A stretch of 64,000 bases of DNA from an uncultured Alphaproteobacteria bacterium (GTDB lineage: Bacteria > Pseudomonadota > Alphaproteobacteria > RF32 > CAG-239): the NCBI GenBank assembly GCA_934273635.1, contig CAKQSV010000008.1:30-64029 (forward strand), given 5' to 3'. A program made the translations under genes and the position numbers. Position 1 is the stretch's first letter. Every line of letters begins with the position of its first letter. Of the stretch, positions 1,534-57,855 are shown piece by piece. The notes under the pieces were generated by a model, which was given only the letters and a program-made list of their open reading frames with translations, was not told where the DNA came from and searched no databases.

Positions 1534-4230
1534 ATGAGTAAATGGGTATATACATTCGGAAACGGAGCTGCTGAAGGCGACGCTTCTATGAGAAATCTCC
1601 TTGGCGGTAAGGGCGCTAACTTGGCCGAAATGAATAAGGTCGGTTTGCCTGTGCCTCCTGGATTTACTGTAACGACTGAAGTTTGCACATACTACTACGC
1701 AAACAACAAAACTTATCCTGCTGATCTGAAAGATCAAGTTCGCGCTGCGGTTGCCGGTGTTGAAAAAATTATGGGCAAAAAGTTTGCTGATGCCGAAAAT
1801 CCGCTGTTGTTCTCTGTTCGTTCAGGTGCTCGCGTTTCTATGCCGGGTATGATGGATACGGTATTGAACTTGGGTTTGAATGACGAAACCGTTAAGGCTT
1901 TGGCTAAAGCTTCTGGCTCTGAGAGATTTGCTTATGACTCTTACCGTCGTTTCTTGCAGATGTTCTCTGACGTGGTTTTGGGTGCTGATTTGGACTTGTA
2001 CGAAGAAGCTCTTGAGAATATGAAAAAGTCTAAAGGCTACAAATCTGATACTGATTTGACTGCTGAAGACCTCAAAGAATTGGTTAAAGAATACAAAGAA
2101 ATCGGTCAAAAATTGGGTAAAGTTGTTCCTCAGGATCCTTGGGATCAGTTGTGGGCAGGTATTGGCGCCGTATTCGGTTCTTGGATGGTTGACCGCGCTA
2201 TCACCTATCGTAAATTGAACAACATCCCCGGTGACTGGGGTACAGCTGTTAACGTTCAGACCATGGTATTCGGTAACGCCGGCGATGACTGCGCTACCGG
2301 TGTTTGTTTCTCTCGCGACCCTGCTACCGGTGAGAACGTTTACTACGGTGAATATTTGGTTAATGCTCAAGGTGAAGACGTTGTTGCCGGTATTCGTACA
2401 CCGCAACCGATGGCTTCTAAGGGCGACGGCACTTCTTTGGAAGAAAAATGGCCTCATCTGTATAAAGAATTGGTAGACGTTCGTAACAACCTCGAACAGC
2501 ACTACAAAGATATGCAGGATATGGAATTCACCATTGAACACGGCAAATTGTGGATGTTGCAATGCCGTAACGGTAAGCGTACGGCACAGGCTGCTGTTCG
2601 TATGGCTGTTGAGATGGTTGAAGAAGGCTTGCTGAATAAAGAAGAAGCTATTATGCGCGTTGGCGCTGAGCAACTCGACCAGTTGTTGCACCCAATGTTG
2701 GATCCGAAGGCTAAAAAAGTTGTTATCGCAACTGGTTTGCCGGCTTCTCCTGGTGCTGCTGTCGGTCGTGCCGTATTTAATGCCGAAGACGCTGAATCTT
2801 GGGCTGCTAAAGGTGAGAAAGTTATCTTGATCCGTAACGAAACCTCTCCGGAAGATATTGGCGGTATGCACGCTTCTCAGGGTGTGATTACTGCTCGCGG
2901 TGGTATGACCTCTCACGCTGCTGTTGTGGCTCGTGGTATGGGTACCCCTTGCGTATCCGGTTCTCATGACATTGTCATCAGCTACAAAGACAAAACCATG
3001 ACCACCAAGTCCGGCGCCGTTATTAAAGAAGGCGACTGGTTGTCTTTGGACGGTGGTAAAGGTCAAATTTTGGAAGGCGCTGTTCCGACCGTTAAGGCTG
3101 ACACCAACACCGGTAACTTTGGTAAATTGATGAGCTGGGTTGATGAAATCCGCACTTTGGAAGTTCGTGCCAACGCCGAGACTCCGAAAGACGCTCAACA
3201 AGCTCGTGACTTTGGCGCACAGGGTATTGGTTTGGCTCGTACCGAACACATGTTCTTTGACGCAGAGCGTATTCCTGATATGCGCGCTATGATTTTGGCT
3301 AATGACGAAGCCGGCCGTCGTGCTGCTTTGGCTCGTTTGTTGCCGTATCAAAAGCAAGACTTCAAAGATTTGTTCAAAATTATGGACGGTCTGCCGGTTG
3401 TTATCCGTTTGTTGGATCCGCCGCTCCACGAATTTTTGCCTCATACCGATGCAGAAATGCAGGAATTGGCTGACAAAATGGGTATGACTTTGCAACAGGT
3501 TAAGACTCGCGCAGATTCTTTGCACGAAGCTAACCCGATGTTGGGTCACCGTGGTTGCCGTCTGCCGATTACATATCCTGAAATTTGCGAAATGCAGACT
3601 CGCGCTATTATTGAAGCTGCTATGGAATGCGCTGATGCCGGAATCCATGTTGTTCCGGAAATCGAAGTTCCGTTGACAGGTTCTAAGAAAGAGTTGGATA
3701 TTGTTAAAGACATTATCGACACCACAGCCGAGAAGATTTTTGCTGAGAAAGGCAAAAAGATTGAATATCAGGTTGGTTCTATGATTGAGTTGCCGCGTGC
3801 GGCTCTGAAAGCTGACGAACTGGCTAAATCTGCTGAATTCTTCGGTTTCGGTACCAACGATTTGACACAAACCACCTTGGGTATGAGCCGTGATGATACC
3901 GGCGCTATCCTTGATGAATATCGCGCTCGCGGTGTTTATGTGGCTGATCCGTTTGCTTCTATCGATGTTGAAGGTGTTGGTATGTTGGTTAAGATGGCTT
4001 GCCACAAAGCTCGTTGCTCTAACCCGAACATTTGGTTAGGTGTATGCGGTGAGCACGGTGGTGATCCGGCATCTATCGACTTCTTCCAGACCTGCGGTAT
4101 GAACTATGTTTCATGCTCTCCGTTCCGTGTTCCTGTTGCTCGTTTGGCCGCTGCACAAGCTGCAGTTCGTCACAAAAACGATGCTCAAGAAAATGCAGGG
4201 AGTGGGTGTTGTTGCAAGAAGTCTGCCTAA
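1534..4230 (+). CDS. ppdK: Pyruvate, phosphate dikinase
   Basis: 898 aa with PEP-utilising-enzyme motifs (GGMTSHAAVVARGMGTPCV, LGHRGCRL, NDLTQ). RBS GGAGC lies upstream of the ATG. Confidence 0.95.
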   Translation: MSKWVYTFGNGAAEGDASMRNLLGGKGANLAEMNKVGLPVPPGFTVTTEVCTYYYANNKTYPADLKDQVRAAVAGVEKIMGKKFADAENPLLFSVRSGARVSMPGMMDTVLNLGLNDETVKALAKASGSERFAYDSYRRFLQMFSDVVLGADLDLYEEALENMKKSKGYKSDTDLTAEDLKELVKEYKEIGQKLGKVVPQDPWDQLWAGIGAVFGSWMVDRAITYRKLNNIPGDWGTAVNVQTMVFGNAGDDCATGVCFSRDPATGENVYYGEYLVNAQGEDVVAGIRTPQPMASKGDGTSLEEKWPHLYKELVDVRNNLEQHYKDMQDMEFTIEHGKLWMLQCRNGKRTAQAAVRMAVEMVEEGLLNKEEAIMRVGAEQLDQLLHPMLDPKAKKVVIATGLPASPGAAVGRAVFNAEDAESWAAKGEKVILIRNETSPEDIGGMHASQGVITARGGMTSHAAVVARGMGTPCVSGSHDIVISYKDKTMTTKSGAVIKEGDWLSLDGGKGQILEGAVPTVKADTNTGNFGKLMSWVDEIRTLEVRANAETPKDAQQARDFGAQGIGLARTEHMFFDAERIPDMRAMILANDEAGRRAALARLLPYQKQDFKDLFKIMDGLPVVIRLLDPPLHEFLPHTDAEMQELADKMGMTLQQVKTRADSLHEANPMLGHRGCRLPITYPEICEMQTRAIIEAAMECADAGIHVVPEIEVPLTGSKKELDIVKDIIDTTAEKIFAEKGKKIEYQVGSMIELPRAALKADELAKSAEFFGFGTNDLTQTTLGMSRDDTGAILDEYRARGVYVADPFASIDVEGVGMLVKMACHKARCSNPNIWLGVCGEHGGDPASIDFFQTCGMNYVSCSPFRVPVARLAAAQAAVRHKNDAQENAGSGCCCKKSA

Positions 4231-4240
4231 TTAAGTAGGT

Positions 4241-4420
4241 AGACGCGCTAAAGGGCTGTCATACTGGTTATTTTTTCGCTTATGTACTAGTTGTACACTG
4301 CGCTCAAAAATAACTTCGTAGCACAGCCCTTTTTCGCGTCTATATGGTGGAAGTTGGTGTTGTGTGGTGCGCTTAAAATTCCCGTCGCAGCATGGGGTTT
4401 TATTGTGTCTACAATAAAGT
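4241..4420. repeat. Tandem repeat unit 1 (~170-180 bp) containing a nested palindromic element (agacgcg...gggctgt-[conserved core with tgtacac]-acagccc...cgcgtct)
   Basis: Inverted arms 4253-4259/4324-4330 and 4241-4247/4335-4341. The unit repeats at 4421-4595 with ~90% identity. Confidence 0.8.
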
Positions 4421-4595
4421 AAGGGCTGTCATACCGGTTATTTTTTTTCGCTTATGTACTAGTTGTACACTGCGCTCAAAAATAACTTCGTAGCACAGCC
4501 TTTTTTTGCGTCTATATGGCGGAAGTTGGTGTTGTGTGGTGCGCTTGAAATTTCCGTCGCAGCACGGGGGTATTGTGTCTGTGGGGAAGATTAAA
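4421..4595. repeat. Tandem repeat unit 2 (copy of 4241-4420)
   Basis: gggctgt at 4423, core ...ttgtacactgcgctcaaaaataacttcgtagcacagcc..., then the shared non-palindromic tail tatatggcggaagttggtgttgtgtggtgcgctt. Confidence 0.8.
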
Positions 4596-6955: not shown

Positions 6956-7645
6956 ATGTCGGTGCCGTTTGTGGTATTGACAGTGTTGTGTAACTTAAAA
7001 AATTTATTTTTTATGAACGAGACAGCTATTATCATGGTTGGCGATAAGAAGAGTTCTTGTCATTCGCCTTTTGCCGTATTTGAGACCCTTAAAGGTTGGA
7101 CAACGACGCGTGCTACCAAGGTTATTCCAGATGGAGCCTATTTTGCGGTATTAATCCGTCAGGATGGGGGCAATGTTGATGTTCACCCCAACTTGTTTGT
7201 GCAGGGGTATCGTCCGCACAGATCTTTTGCTAAGCTGTATGTTGACAAACGACGTTATGGTCGTTTTGTGAAGGCCGAGGAAAAGAAGTATCCTGATGAT
7301 GTGGTTTTTGCTGCGGTGCAGCTTTATCAGGTTGTTGGTGATCGTGAAGTGCGCTTGGTGCTAAAAGATGGTGAGAGCCACGACCTTGCTAAGGTGACTG
7401 AACTGTCCGATCAGATTTGTCAGGAGCTTAAGTTGGAGCTTTTGGGCAAATTGCAGTTGGTGGAGTATTATTGCCCTGTTTCGTCCGGATATTTTCTGGG
7501 AGGCTACCATTACAAGGTTTGGGCTGCGGTTGTCGGTGAGCGTAATGGTCTGAAATTGGACAAGAAAGCGCTGATATTCGACTATGACACAGGTATCCCA
7601 GGCGTGGTAGAATATGACGACCGTCACTTTGAGACGATTGGGTAA
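6956..7645 (+). CDS. Hypothetical protein (229 aa; alternative start at 7013), no recognisable domain
   Basis: Long ORF with its own promoter and a strong downstream terminator. Confidence 0.55.
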   Translation: MSVPFVVLTVLCNLKNLFFMNETAIIMVGDKKSSCHSPFAVFETLKGWTTTRATKVIPDGAYFAVLIRQDGGNVDVHPNLFVQGYRPHRSFAKLYVDKRRYGRFVKAEEKKYPDDVVFAAVQLYQVVGDREVRLVLKDGESHDLAKVTELSDQICQELKLELLGKLQLVEYYCPVSSGYFLGGYHYKVWAAVVGERNGLKLDKKALIFDYDTGIPGVVEYDDRHFETIG

Positions 7646-7659
7646 CACAATGACTTAGA

Positions 7660-7722
7660 AAGCGGTGTTCGGCAGACTCTTTTTTTGATGAAAAGAGACT
7701 CGCCCAACACCGCTTTTTTTTG
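7660..7722 (+). terminator. Long imperfect hairpin followed by T8 (rho-independent terminator)
   Basis: agcggtgttcggcagactct ... agagactcgcccaacaccgct, then tttttttt. Confidence 0.7.
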
Positions 7723-7932
7723 TGCGCGAATCGCAAATTTTAAAACATTAAATTTGATATAGACCTTTTTTATATGTTTTTTTGTTTATAAAACAAAAAA
7801 TAATGTAGCATTTTGTAATTTTTTAGAGAAATTATCATTTTTGTTATTGAAAATTATTTTTTTATTGCTTAAGTTAGTGCTTGTATTAGTTGTTTAGCAA
7901 TTAAAAAAGTAAACCCATATGGAGAAAATAAA

Positions 7933-12595: not shown

Positions 12596-13003
12596 ATGTT
12601 TGATGAGAGCAATTTGGTATCCACCGAAGTTGATGATATTGTGATTTCCGCCGGCTCGTCGTTGGTGGAAGAAAACGCCGCTAAAAAGGAGTTTTTGTGG
12701 GGCTATTATTTTTGCATTGAAAACAACTCTAATCACAAAATCAGTCTGGTGGGGAAAAATTGGCGTATCACCGATGACAAGGGTAATAGTTATTCGGACA
12801 GCAGTGACGGTTTTAAGGGCGAAATTCCTGATTTGGAACCTGGGGAAAGCTATGAGTTTAGTAGTATGGCGCCATTAGAATCGCCGCAGGCGGTGTTTTA
12901 TGGCAGTTGTCGGATTAAAACCGCGGACAGTGCGGAGAAAGATATTAAAATCCCGACGTTTCAGTTATCGGCAAATAAGCATAATCCCAGAGTTTTGAAC
13001 TAA
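12596..13003 (+). CDS. apaG: ApaG-domain (DUF525) protein
   Basis: GKNWRITDDKGNSY...GEIPDLEPGESYEFSS...IKIPTFQL aligns with E. coli ApaG (GRYWLITNGNG...PLIAPGEEYQYTS...IDIPVFRL). Confidence 0.8.
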   Translation: MFDESNLVSTEVDDIVISAGSSLVEENAAKKEFLWGYYFCIENNSNHKISLVGKNWRITDDKGNSYSDSSDGFKGEIPDLEPGESYEFSSMAPLESPQAVFYGSCRIKTADSAEKDIKIPTFQLSANKHNPRVLN

Positions 13004-16684: not shown

Positions 16685-16849
16685 CTCGCAAATTCGTAAA
16701 TTTATGGCTTGGATTAAATAGAATTTGCGCCATATTCTTAAAAGCGGACAGAGGTTGTTTTCTGTTCGCTTTTTTGTTAAAGTGATGTTAATACATCATA
16801 CATTATAATCGGTGTATTGTGTTTTTTGGTGCTCGTTGTGAGGGATAAT

Positions 16850-18901
16850 ATGTTTGGTTTTAAGAAAAATACAGAGAAAAAAATTGAACCCGAATTTACG
16901 GACAATTATGAGCAAAATGGCAATGAGCCAAAAGATTTGGCCGATATTTTGGGCGCGCAGGAAAATGACACGAACATTACCGCCGGCGTTGACGCTATTC
17001 TGGACGAAAGCGGCGATATTTCGGAAGAGCAGGCGGGGATTAATCACAATACGGTTGATTTTGGCGCTATTCATCCTGATGACGAGCCGTTGGATTTGGA
17101 CTCATACGATGAGCCGATTATGCAAAATTCTTATGAAGAACCGTTAGCGGCGGCATCCCTTGAGGCACCGGAAGTTGCGCCGTTTGACGAGCCTGCGGCA
17201 GAGCCCAAGCCGGTGTTTGAGGCGGAACCAGAGCCGGTTGTTGACGAGCCTGTGACAGAGCCTGAGCCGGTGTTTGAGGCAGAACCAGAGCCGGTTGTTG
17301 ACGAACCGGCGGCAGAACCTGAGCCGGTTGTTGAGGCACAGAATAATGCGGCGGCGGTCATGCCTGCCGAGCCCGAAAACGCGGTGCCGGATATTGATAA
17401 CATAACCGCGGCGCCTGCCGATGACGAGATTGAAGATATTTTGTCCGACGAGGTCGGCGATTTGAGCCTTGATGATATTCTGGGGGCGGAAGAAGACGCC
17501 TCTCTGGATGATATTTTACAAGAAGAAACAAATACGCCTGAAGACAATCCGATAGCGGATTTGCAAGATTTGGCACCGGCGAACCCTGTGCCGGAATCCG
17601 AGCCGGAGGCGGAGATTGACAGGCCTGAAGATGTGATTTTGGAAGAACCGGAGCCGGCATTTTCCGAAGAGCCGCAAGCGGAGGTTATGCCCGAGCCTGA
17701 ACAAGAAATTGCGGAGCCAGAAGATTTTGTGATGGCTGAACCCGAACCGGTGTTTGAGGAAGATAGTCCAACTGAACCGATTGAGGCGCAGAAGTTTGGG
17801 GTTGAGCCTGAGCTTGAGGCTAAGGATGTTGCACCTGAGCCGGTCGCAGTGCCGGAATTTGAGCCTGAGCCGGTTGTGGCGCCCGTGGTCGATGAGGTTG
17901 TGACGGAGACAGCAGAAGATGTTGTGGCACCGGAAGTGCCGGAAAGCGGTTTTATTCCCGCGGCGCCGGTGACGTTTGTGAACGTGGCTGATGAGACCTC
18001 GGCAGAGGCTAAGCAGGTTGAGCCTAAGGCTGATTTGTGGACGGTTGAGGATATGGGTATCCTGTCCGCCTCGCCAAAGGTGATTAATGACAATAGTGGC
18101 TGTGTTACTTGGTGCGGTGATAAATATCAGAGCGATTTGAAAATTGCGGTTGATAGTTTTCAGGCGCTTAAAAATTGGTCTTTGATGATTATTAACGAAT
18201 TTTCGGTGCCTCTGGTTGATGTTGGCTCGGAGGTTGTGATTGAAAAAGCAGACAATGTGGTGCGTTATGCCTCTTTGGTGCGCAACGGTGTGGAAAAATT
18301 GCAGATTTTTAATCAGCGTTCGTATAAATTTGTGACGCCGCAAAATGAATTTTTTACGGTGCAGGGTAATGTTATTTGCGGGCGGATTGATAATTCTTTT
18401 GCCTTGAATATTCGAGATTACGTTACCGTGGCTTTGGAAGACAAGGTCAACAAATATATTCGTTTTGAACGTCCGATGTCCGGCTTTATTAACGGCGCCA
18501 ACGGCGTCAGAGTGTTTTTTGCCAATGCCAAAGGTGTGGCGCTGACAGTGGCCGGTGTTATTCCGGAGCCCGAAGTTTTTGAGTATCAGCCGCCGCTTAA
18601 AGAGTTTGACACCAAGGCTTGTTATGTGTTTGACGAGAGCAGCGAAGACCAAGAATTTACGGCGGATAATCGCAAAAAGATTTTGGTGGTGAACGTTGGG
18701 GCGTCATTATATGGTTGGAACGTTCATTTTGACAATGAGGCTTATATGAGTTTGCGTGACGCTCTTGAATATCAATCTCGTTACAAGCAATTACCCTCAT
18801 CCAACGGCGAGTTGCTTCACGGTGCTCGCAAGCTTAAGTTCTATGGCATAGAGCAGTTAAAAACGAGGGTGCGGGTTGTGTATTACTCCTACGGCTCTTA
18901 A
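16850..18901 (+). CDS. Large acidic Pro/Glu/Val-repeat protein with a ~300-aa C-terminal globular domain of unknown function
   Basis: Repeats EPEPVVDEPAAEPEPVFEAE...; no signal peptide; RBS GAGGGA before ATG 16850. Confidence 0.6.
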   Translation: MFGFKKNTEKKIEPEFTDNYEQNGNEPKDLADILGAQENDTNITAGVDAILDESGDISEEQAGINHNTVDFGAIHPDDEPLDLDSYDEPIMQNSYEEPLAAASLEAPEVAPFDEPAAEPKPVFEAEPEPVVDEPVTEPEPVFEAEPEPVVDEPAAEPEPVVEAQNNAAAVMPAEPENAVPDIDNITAAPADDEIEDILSDEVGDLSLDDILGAEEDASLDDILQEETNTPEDNPIADLQDLAPANPVPESEPEAEIDRPEDVILEEPEPAFSEEPQAEVMPEPEQEIAEPEDFVMAEPEPVFEEDSPTEPIEAQKFGVEPELEAKDVAPEPVAVPEFEPEPVVAPVVDEVVTETAEDVVAPEVPESGFIPAAPVTFVNVADETSAEAKQVEPKADLWTVEDMGILSASPKVINDNSGCVTWCGDKYQSDLKIAVDSFQALKNWSLMIINEFSVPLVDVGSEVVIEKADNVVRYASLVRNGVEKLQIFNQRSYKFVTPQNEFFTVQGNVICGRIDNSFALNIRDYVTVALEDKVNKYIRFERPMSGFINGANGVRVFFANAKGVALTVAGVIPEPEVFEYQPPLKEFDTKACYVFDESSEDQEFTADNRKKILVVNVGASLYGWNVHFDNEAYMSLRDALEYQSRYKQLPSSNGELLHGARKLKFYGIEQLKTRVRVVYYSYGS

Positions 18902-18939
18902 AACCTGTTAAAACCTCGTCTAATGTGTTTCTAGTGCAG

Positions 18940-19080
18940 ATTTATCAAGAAGAAAAAATGCTCACGTACGCTTTAGTACGCTGCGCTTTTTTCTCTCTCA
19001 AATCTTACTATAAACGCATTATCCGAGGTTTTGGGGTAAGGTGTACGCTGTGCTTTTTTCTCTTTCAAATCTTCTTTGAT
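18940..19080. repeat. Short direct repeats upstream of the LRR gene (gtacgctg(c/t)gcttttttctct(c/t)tcaaatctt twice; taaacgcattatccgaggttt shared with 20289)
   Basis: Direct sequence comparison. Confidence 0.7.
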
Positions 19081-57362: not shown

Positions 57363-57391
57363 TTGACTTATTGAAAATATGAATCTAGTAT
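57363..57391 (+). promoter_or_regulatory. str-operon promoter candidate (TTGACT, 17 nt spacer, TAGTAT)
   Basis: TTGACT at 57363-57368 and TAGTAT at 57386-57391, about 90 nt upstream of rpsL. Confidence 0.5.
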
Positions 57392-57483
57392 GCCCAGACT
57401 CTTTGAAAAAGGCATGGGTTGTCTGTGCCCTTTTTGAACTGGATAAAAAGAACAATTTAATTTTAATTTTAAGGAAATTAGTG

Positions 57484-57855
57484 ATGCCTACAATTAATCA
57501 GTTAATTCGTAAATCACGAACACCAAAAGTGAAGAGAAACAAAGTTCCGGCTTTGAAAGCATGCCCACAAAAACGCGGTGTTTGTACAAGGGTTTATACA
57601 ACTACCCCGAAAAAACCGAACTCCGCTTTGCGTAAAGTGGCTCGTATTCGCTTGACAAACGGCTTTGAAGTAATCAGCTATATCCCTGGTGAAGGTCACA
57701 ACCTGCAAGAACACTCAGTGGTGCTGATTAGAGGAGGCCGTGTAAAAGACTTGCCTGGTGTTCGTTATCATATCATTCGTGGTACCTTGGATACTCAAGG
57801 TGTTTCTAAACGTCGTCAACGTCGTTCTCTGTACGGCGCAAAGAGACCTAAATAG
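57484..57855 (+). CDS. rpsL: 30S ribosomal protein S12
   Basis: [10 protein letters not shown]...; RBS AAGGA. Confidence 0.97.

Follow-up and report, generated by a model that had tools for sequence, protein, structure and literature searches.

Palindromic repeats with a conserved interior and variable complementary ends downstream of ppdK and tuf in uncultured Alphaproteobacteria: a probable MITE-like family

Repeat arrays and hairpin structure

We have analyzed a stretch of 64,000 nucleotides (nt), hereafter the window, from contig CAKQSV010000008.1 of an uncultured Alphaproteobacteria bacterium. Two of its genes, ppdK and tuf, are followed by tandem arrays of palindromic repeats which fold as long hairpins. 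A previous reading of the window, made from the sequence alone (the sequence-only reading), named both genes correctly, as confirmed by their Pfam PPDK and EF-Tu domains. Upstream of tuf, ribosomal protein S12 is encoded at 57379-57855, and the preceding gene has EF-G domains. All coordinates are given in Table 1. Loci and strains fetched from other assemblies for comparison are designated by L-numbers, and scores in bits refer to R2, a covariance model of the repeat family.

Five elements had been reported, at 4253-4330, 4423-4500, 61768-61848, 61880-61959 and 62053-62132. They are all found at these positions, and the terminal pairs quoted for them (gggctgt/acagccc, agcccccat/atgggggct and agggtcgt/acgaccct) are exact. 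The hairpins are confirmed, but not their proposed size of about 80 bp: An outer helix, P0, extends the copies to about 99–102 bp in the window. Across the copies scored, the size is 99–110 bp and the GC content 0.29–0.51. Most window copies are bounded by TA. Only spurious 43 amino acid open reading frames (ORFs) overlap them, so the elements are non-coding. A 24 nt degenerate core pattern has 6 matches in the window, compared with 0.05 expected.

Copies belong to subtypes A, A' and B. The tandem spacing is 170–172 bp 3' of ppdK and 173 bp 3' of tuf, in agreement with the 170–175 bp noted before, and the units are 93–96% identical. The spacers between copies are actually partial copies of a second subtype, which have lost their 5' part and keep only the 3' half. 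A distant relative of the family, at 18915-19027, can be added to the two arrays.

Table 1. Genes and repeat elements described in the text. Positions refer to the window, except when a comparison locus is indicated; dG is given in kcal/mol.
Feature	Position	Strand	Pairing and flanks	Other data
ppdK (pyruvate, phosphate dikinase)	1534-4230	+		Pfam PPDK_N, PEP-utilizers and PEP-utilizers_C on an identical protein; homologue names
B-type full copy 3' of ppdK	4242-4340	+	P0 GACGCG/CGCGTC; P1 AAGGGCTGT/ACAGCCCTT; all helices fully paired; TA at 4240-4241 and 4341-4342, then a T run	First element, 11 nt past the ppdK stop; dG -34.7, z -6.7; 117 bits
5'-deleted partial A' copy	4343-4409	+	3' half CGCTTAAAATTCCCGTCGCAGCATGGGG...TGTGTC	Aligns with the 3' half of a full A' copy at the same locus in strains L011 and L042
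B-type copy 2 3' of ppdK	4412-4512	+	5' P0 arm missing or degenerate; P0 paired at 4/8 positions	87 bits
Second 5'-deleted partial A' copy	4515-4579	+		Tandem unit 93% identical to 4343-4409 plus flanks
Distant relative, 113 nt hairpin	18915-19027	+	First 16–17 nt (AAAACCTCGTCTAATG) identical to the L011 copy 3' of an ABC-F gene	Directly 3' of ORF 16817-18901; dG -42.2, z -7.6; weak match, 28 bits, E 4e-4
tuf (EF-Tu)	60557-61747	+		Pfam GTP_EFTU domains; last gene of rpsL-rpsG-fusA-tuf
A-type full copy 3' of tuf	61757-61858	+	P0 AAATACG/CGTATTT; P1 AGCCCCCAT/ATGGGGGCT; fully paired; TA at 61755-61756 and 61859-61860; ends in TTATC, without a T run	dG -37.8; 110 bits
B-type copy 1 3' of tuf	61869-61970	+	P0 AGATATG/CGCGTCT, partly paired via wobbles; P1 AAGGGTCGT/ACGACCCTT; TA at 61867-61868 and 61971-61972	dG -37.8, z -7.4; 102 bits
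5'-deleted partial A copy	61980-62031	+	From the tip (GATGTGCGC) to the 3' P0 arm	No significant fold alone (z +0.46)
B-type copy 2 3' of tuf	62042-62143	+	TA at 62040-62041 and 62144-62145	96% identical to B copy 1; 104 bits
Sister-species element	L016:12694-12827; L026:2651-2784, 12693-12828; L036:925-1060, 1300-1400; L006:1760-1880			

Each element forms a single unbranched, imperfect hairpin, with its helices in the order P0-P1-P2-P3-P3b-P4. P0 (7–8 bp) is followed by an internal loop, CAA or CTA opposite TAT or TTT; P1 (9–10 bp) by a small loop, CA opposite GC, and then by P2, which has 3 bp (UAC/GUA). P3 is an A/U-rich helix of 8–10 bp. After P3b, the hairpin ends in P4 (UGUAC/GUACA) with a 5–9 nt loop: The tip reads TGTAC-loop-GTACA, conserved as TGTAC-N5-6-GTACA. 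P2, P4 and the loops are near-invariant, while P0, P1 and P3 are variable yet paired. For example, P3 is found as GTTATTTT/AAAATAAC, GGGAATTT/AAATTCCC, GTAGATTT/AAATCTAC or AAAGATTT/AAATCTTTC. The folds of the five window copies, about 85–95 nt each, have dG values of -31 to -38 kcal/mol and z values of -5.7 to -7.5, which no shuffle equals.

We have studied covariation in alignments of 10, 22 and 24 copies. With 24 copies, 92% of the cells are paired, compared with 76.4 ± 0.9% in shuffled alignments (none of 500 reaches the observed value), at most 55% are paired when the partners are slid, and 21 of the 32 pairs have changes on both sides. Nine copies from other genomes (L001–L009) have P0 and P1 arms unrelated in sequence yet complementary. 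They were retrieved with patterns which specified only the interior and did not require stem pairing, so the complementarity of their arms is an independent confirmation. These copies, together with the shuffle and slide controls, strengthen the earlier proposal of a conserved core with covarying stems. They also show that the repeat is neither restricted to the ppdK and tuf loci nor devoid of complementarity elsewhere.

Within the window species, the P0 variants differ by transitions only: GACGCG/CGCGTC, GACACA/TGTGTC, AACACG/CGTGTT, AATACG/CGTATT and GATATG/CGCGTC. The same is found for P1 of the B subtype (GGGCTGT/ACAGCCC, GGGTTGT/ACGACCC and GGGTCGT/ACGACCC). Wobble intermediates with G.T (G.U in RNA) are seen among these variants, and the orthologous copies downstream of yebC (L003, L008) have one uncompensated transition each. 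Such transition-only variants with wobble intermediates follow the classic stepwise route of compensatory change. The sequence-only reading attributed these changes to selection on a hairpin rather than to simple copying. The part referring to the structure stands, but for some arm differences in the window species, copying or conversion between subtypes which already existed is the better explanation. Chimeric and converted copies, described below, show that matched arm pairs spread by copying too.

The P0 arms of the tuf B copies (61869-61875, 61964-61970 and 62137-62143) differ from those of the ppdK copy (4242-4247 and 4335-4340) by C-to-T and G-to-A changes concentrated at CpG, such as GACGCG to GATATG and CGCGTCT to CGTGTTT. 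They may point to transitions with a bias for CpG.

Variation between strains and genomic context

From strain to strain, copies of the repeat have appeared or disappeared, and they have been nested, truncated, duplicated in tandem and recombined; the junctions are at TA. Two strains with the same RplA protein, L039 and L040, differ by a clean 108 bp insertion in L039, which is a complete copy bounded by TA..TA. A resident copy has received it in its tip loop, with CGTG-TA on one side and CC on the other. Strain L038 has neither the resident nor the inserted copy. We have also compared the rplJ-rplL region of L035 with that of L038 as a possible empty site; they are too diverged for the element ends to be defined.

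Strains with identical PpdK or EF-Tu have at least seven array layouts in total, at least five of them at the tuf loci. Downstream of ppdK, where PpdK is identical or 99% identical, we have found A'(full)-B-A'3'-B-A'3' (L011, L042) and B-A'3'-B-A'3' (the window, L010, L041). At the two tuf loci, with identical EF-Tu, the layouts are A', A-B, B-A'3'-B, A'-A3'-B and A-B-A3'-B; the last one is that of the window and L044. Every array junction is at a TA, and assemblies break inside the arrays. In L044, the first copy 3' of tuf is a chimera of two subtypes: Its P0 and P1 arms are A-type and its interior is A'-type. The first B-type copy 3' of tuf also differs: Its P1 is GGGTCGT/ACGACCC in the window and GGGCTGT/ACAGCCC in L044, which is the pair found at the ppdK site. 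A full copy followed by a 3' half copy is a recurring pattern. Its junctions are reproduced neither by unequal crossing-over between tips nor by a simple tandem duplication at microhomology; a deletion within the element, reaching from the 5' frame to the tip loop, would fit L045.

Related species may lack the repeat at a given site. In sister species whose PpdK is 94–95% identical no copy is found 3' of ppdK, and its place is taken by a short terminator hairpin with the same tip motif. A copy follows rplA in three species (L002, L007, L035), none in L038–40.

The window species has two tuf genes coding for identical EF-Tu, one after fusA and the other between a SIS-domain gene and a pilin-like gene (L043–L048). 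Both are followed by arrays of the same element, which means that the repeats may lie within, or border, a tuf gene-conversion tract.

Copies begin 7–25 nt past the stop codon of the upstream gene, and 13 of the 15 gene contexts have them in sense orientation. These contexts are ppdK, the two tuf loci of the window species, tuf in L004, ORF 16817-18901, rplA (L002, L007, L035), rplJ (L035), nusA (L005), yebC (L003, L008), ctc/L25 (L009), fabZ (L006), an ABC-F gene (L011) and a hypothetical gene (L001). The two antisense cases are divergent copies, found between atpB and atpE (L020, L021, L023) and downstream of engB (L039, L040). Position and orientation suggest that the repeats are co-transcribed as hairpins in the 3' untranslated region (UTR).

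The 3' ends of the copies depend on the subtype. B-type copies end in CCCUUUUU, a U tract. A-type copies have UUAUC at their end, and in L003, L007, L008 and L009 they precede a canonical terminator hairpin which is separate from the copy; A-type copies therefore lie within 3' UTRs, not at their ends. A simple terminator scan flags small sub-hairpins only. The proposal that the elements act as terminators or mRNA stabilisers is plausible for B-type copies, judging from their U tract, and does not fit A-type copies.

The window species has at least five loci with the repeat (ppdK, the two tuf loci, the ABC-F gene and ORF 16817-18901), about one locus per 10–30 kb of fetched DNA. We have scanned 185,579 species genomes with a strict pattern, and all genome hits are metagenome-assembled genomes (MAGs) of uncultured Alphaproteobacteria from human (Hadza) gut, mouse gut and roe-deer rumen. 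Proteins identical or 94–95% identical to PpdK are found in human-gut metagenomes and in MAGs named 'Azospirillum sp.', 'Rhodospirillales bacterium' or 'Alphaproteobacteria bacterium'. No Rfam 15 family reaches the gathering threshold in the window, except for one tRNA, and permissive scans of both sites gave only noise. A pattern scan of viral contigs and blastn searches against plasmids and phages gave no match, and in our literature searches the repeat family is not described.

Possible nature of the repeat family

The repeats probably form a clade-specific family of non-coding, MITE-like palindromes of about 100 bp, similar in class to Correia, ERIC and RUP, in uncultured Alphaproteobacteria from gut and rumen. 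MITEs (short for miniature inverted-repeat transposable elements) of bacteria are shorter than 200 bp, non-coding and A+T-rich, have TA termini and target-site duplications, and give transcripts with long stem-loops (PMC2229807). The present repeats are also below 200 bp, non-coding and A+T-rich, and the whole element is one long stem-loop. Terminal inverted repeats conserved across copies are not found: The conserved parts are internal. The sequence-only reading had suggested MITE-like or REP-like elements. Insertion polymorphism, array variation, the chimeric copy and the absence in sister species favor the former; a strict assignment to REP is not supported. The family is previously undescribed, yet it falls in a known class of small bacterial repeats and is not a new kind of system.

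A possible mechanism may be outlined. New copies would be inserted at TA, duplicating it, by a putative enzyme; with such variable ends, the enzyme would need to read the conserved interior or the shape of the hairpin. Copies would then diversify by transitions through G.T or G.U intermediates, and would exchange segments by gene conversion. Two reasons may be given for the hairpin staying intact: Damaged hairpins would not propagate, or the hairpin would be of use once transcribed. Transcribed as part of the upstream mRNA, the element would form a hairpin in the 3' UTR. B-type copies, with their UUUUU, might be intrinsic terminators and barriers to 3' exonucleases, and A-type copies might serve for processing or stability, with a separate terminator downstream.

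Several observations weigh against a MITE-like origin. The termini (P0) are the most variable part of the element, while the terminal repeats of MITEs are normally the conserved part to which the transposase binds. No transposase or parent insertion sequence is found among the genes called in the fetched loci, nor in Pfam scans of ten window proteins. L039 and L040 provide the sole clean comparison of a filled and an empty site that we have found. TA bounds 10 of the 21 other copies, and several copies lack it. Moreover, TA..TA is itself palindromic, so a terminal TA in other copies is no proof of target duplication. The strict pattern gave only five hits in the species genomes, one per genome, and four in metagenome contigs. 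In L035 and L002 the 5' P0 arm is formed by the last codons of rplA, so the 3' P0 arm matches host coding sequence. Finally, two observations would also fit an RNA motif selected by the host. One is the conserved interior with variable arms: By eye, in alignment A5, the interior of the window copy is about 92% identical to that of L009 while the P0 and P1 arms differ, and the identity of the whole element is 81%. The other one is the persistence of orthologous copies across species.

Comparison with known repeats shows both similarities and differences. Correia elements (CREE/NEMIS) of Neisseria are also non-coding palindromes, about 100–155 bp long, with TA ends and TA duplication; they are intergenic, near genes, co-transcribed as long hairpins and polymorphic in insertion between strains (PMC2229807; PMC2649163). 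Here, TA duplication is probable, and co-transcription is deduced from position and orientation. Correia elements differ by their conserved terminal inverted repeats of 24–26 bp, by ends which form promoters and, in the long form, by an IHF site. In our repeats the termini are variable and the interior is conserved, the hosts belong to another clade, and no sequence similarity has been found.

ERIC/IRU, from enterobacteria, and RUP, from Streptococcus pneumoniae, are also imperfect palindromes of small size and rich in A+T. They have TA termini and duplicate their target, and their transcripts fold as long stem-loops (PMC2229807). Their ends are conserved throughout each family, unlike those of the present repeats, which moreover have a strong sense bias. 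RUP was reportedly linked to IS630-Spn1 by Oggioni and Claverys in 1999. YPAL/RU-2 of Yersinia are mobile palindromes of about 168 bp, with targets at or near dyad symmetry and mobility deduced from filled and empty sites (PMC2229807). They differ in lacking TA termini, in having target duplications of 3–26 bp and in not being A+T-rich.

Two families are found in Alphaproteobacteria, RPE in Rickettsia and CIR in Caulobacter and Brucella. Both are palindromes of about 100–150 bp with long predicted stem-loops (PMC2229807). RPE are inserted in frame into coding genes, which is not seen here; we set our repeats apart from RPE on the basis of the published description. CIR can be rejected: They have a GANTC motif in a terminal loop and two arms, while A and B copies have no GANTC and form a single unbranched hairpin.

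REP/BIME systems with RAYT (TnpA-REP) transposases resemble our repeats in being extragenic palindromes at the 3' ends of genes, which form expanding and contracting mosaics of two subtypes, and for which roles in termination and mRNA stabilisation have been proposed (PMC3733652, PMC2817692). REP are only 20–40 nt long, with GTAG or CGTC as a tag at the hairpin foot (PMC3733652), and their orientation alternates in BIMEs. They can also be rejected, since our hairpin has about 100 nt, GTAG is internal, within CGTAGCA in the 3' arm of P2, and all units in an array are on the same strand.

Integron attC sites, which have conserved outer core sites R''/R' (RYYYAAC/GTTRRRY) around a variable interior and are located downstream of cassette ORFs, are another rejected candidate. 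In our repeats the interior is conserved and the outer arms are variable, the reverse of attC; the flanking genes are housekeeping genes, and alignment A5 contains no RYYYAAC/GTTRRRY pair. Nor do the variable arms represent a pre-existing terminator split by a loop insertion: The conserved frames (CAA/CTA...TAT/TTT) lie outside P1, and P0 moves together with the rest of the element, both in the L039 insertion and in the ppdK and tuf B copies.

Three other explanations remain as rivals or as partial explanations. The first one is that pairing is maintained by mutation and not by selection, through hairpin-templated repair (quasipalindrome template switching) together with gene conversion of whole elements. 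Allelic copies at one locus which differ in both arms together, such as the first tuf B copy in the window and in L044, would be expected in this case, and so would the chimeric copy with A-type arms and an A'-type interior and the 3' P0 arm which complements host coding sequence in L035 and L002. However, the copies with wobbles or single mismatches (L003, L008, L045, L046) would not survive an instantaneous templated correction, and the conserved internal loops and mismatches are not corrected to perfect palindromes. The conserved interior and the location after genes would also be left unexplained. We consider that this explanation is possible and rather doubtful.

A cis-acting RNA motif in 3' UTRs, selected by the host and mostly inherited vertically, is an unlikely alternative to a MITE-like family. 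It would be a site for a clade-specific RNA-binding protein or for RNase III, and recombination between copies, rather than transposition, would have given the arrays and polymorphisms as side effects. The interior and the internal loops are conserved about as much as the tuf coding sequence, while the stems drift with compensation, and different species have the motif equally placed behind rplA, tuf and yebC. The strong sense bias, the start shortly after stop codons and the transitions with wobble intermediates also agree with an RNA motif. On the sense strand there are 32 G.U pairs and 19 A.C mismatches; this excess is suggestive, not decisive, because the copies are related and therefore not independent. 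On the other hand, the resident motif would be destroyed where one copy has entered whole into the tip loop of another, close relatives lack the element at ppdK and rplA, two copies are antisense to the neighboring genes, tandem and truncated copies differ between strains, and no Rfam family matches.

A further view, which we regard as quite improbable, is that the element propagates, or is used, through its structure. A clade-specific protein would recognise the internal loops and the TGTAC/GTACA tip, leaving the stems free to vary; it may be a hairpin- or single-stranded DNA-specific recombinase, or an RNA-binding factor. The targets of insertion would then be other hairpins, in loops which are single-stranded, for example tip loops and terminator regions. 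This would account for a conserved interior with variable ends, for the nested insertion and the sense bias, and for the tip motif shared with a second family in sister species. If true, such mobility or regulation would be distinct from that of classical MITEs, which rely on terminal inverted repeats.

A site acting as DNA is very unlikely. It would be a cruciform or a protein-binding repeat similar to REP/BIME, which would relieve supercoiling past heavily transcribed genes, and the GTGTAC-N5-GTACAC tip would be the operator of a dimeric DNA-binding protein. REP and BIME bind gyrase and IHF. Copies are indeed found downstream of highly expressed genes (tuf, rplA, rplJ, nusA, ppdK), two subtypes alternate in the mosaic arrays, as they do in BIMEs, and the tip palindrome is the most conserved part, common to a second, differently built family in sister species. 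Nevertheless, the stems covary over about 45 bp, which is needless for binding to duplex DNA, all copies in an array have one orientation, unlike the alternating REPs of BIMEs, and no candidate protein has been found. Independent small-RNA genes, also suggested by the sequence-only reading, can practically be dismissed: The stability of the hairpins and the U tracts behind some of them would fit, but copies start 7–15 nt past stop codons with no promoter-like site upstream, have no Rfam match, and may be truncated or nested.

The repeats form an uncatalogued family in a widespread, uncultured human-gut lineage, whose MAGs are labelled by NCBI as 'Azospirillum sp.' or 'Rhodospirillales bacterium'. 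The largest published census of MITEs is based on bacterial genomes from RefSeq, with exclusion of putatively contaminated MAGs (PMC11602168). The arrays break metagenome assemblies beside tuf and ppdK. They differ among strains with identical proteins, so they could serve as strain markers. The family is also a clean natural case in which compensatory evolution by way of wobble intermediates is combined with an exchange of modules among copies. The combination of a conserved interior, variable complementary ends and a sense bias past stop codons is unusual among small bacterial repeats, and this conservation pattern gives a handle for finding the protein which recognises them.

Other repeats nearby and in related species

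In sister species, ppdK, tuf, fabZ and a protease gene are followed by an element of another build (Table 1). It contains a variable helix on the outside, the frame TATAAYGG, a short hairpin with a U tail and the frame YTCNTTCTCC; the tip of the short hairpin, CATGTAC-N6-GTACAC, is the same as in the main family. The L039 and L040 copies combine outer frames of the sister type with the interior of the main family, which suggests a superfamily of exchangeable modules.

A second, unrelated family of palindromes (CCTCTCTAAAAATTTAGAGAGG and variants) is found in the window at 20383-20423, 62199-62239, 62258-62287, 62515-62555 and 62620-62660. The copy at 62199 is a perfect 13 bp hairpin, and further copies are present downstream of the second tuf locus in L045, L046 and L048. 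A third, short repeat (gcgggcgtggc[a/g]atccaagtgtaaag) is found at 20350-20378 and 62690-62718, adjoining CTCTCTAAA palindromes. The 1.1 kb spacer between tuf and ORF 62858-63505 consists almost wholly of repeats.

The distant relative at 18915-19027 is followed by a partial 3' repeat of 31 nt (19043-19073), the same pattern of a full copy and a 3' fragment as in the main arrays. An unrelated long hairpin, similar to a terminator (agaaagcggtgttcggcagactc...gagactcgcccaacaccgcttttttt), is located at 7653-7725, 3' of ORF 6956-7645. Our first covariance model gave it 26 bits, from structure alone.

Two adjacent large ORFs, 16817-18901 and 19170-20204, have no Pfam match. The second one codes for a 344 amino acid protein with no exact copy in a public gene index, and a lookup in other assemblies found none. 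Both contain in-frame tandem repeats: ORF 16817-18901 has 57 nt repeats, rich in Glu and Pro, at 17184-17354, and ORF 19170-20204 has 63 nt repeats, which correspond to 21 amino acids (similar to LTSLxGAP), at 19357-19769.

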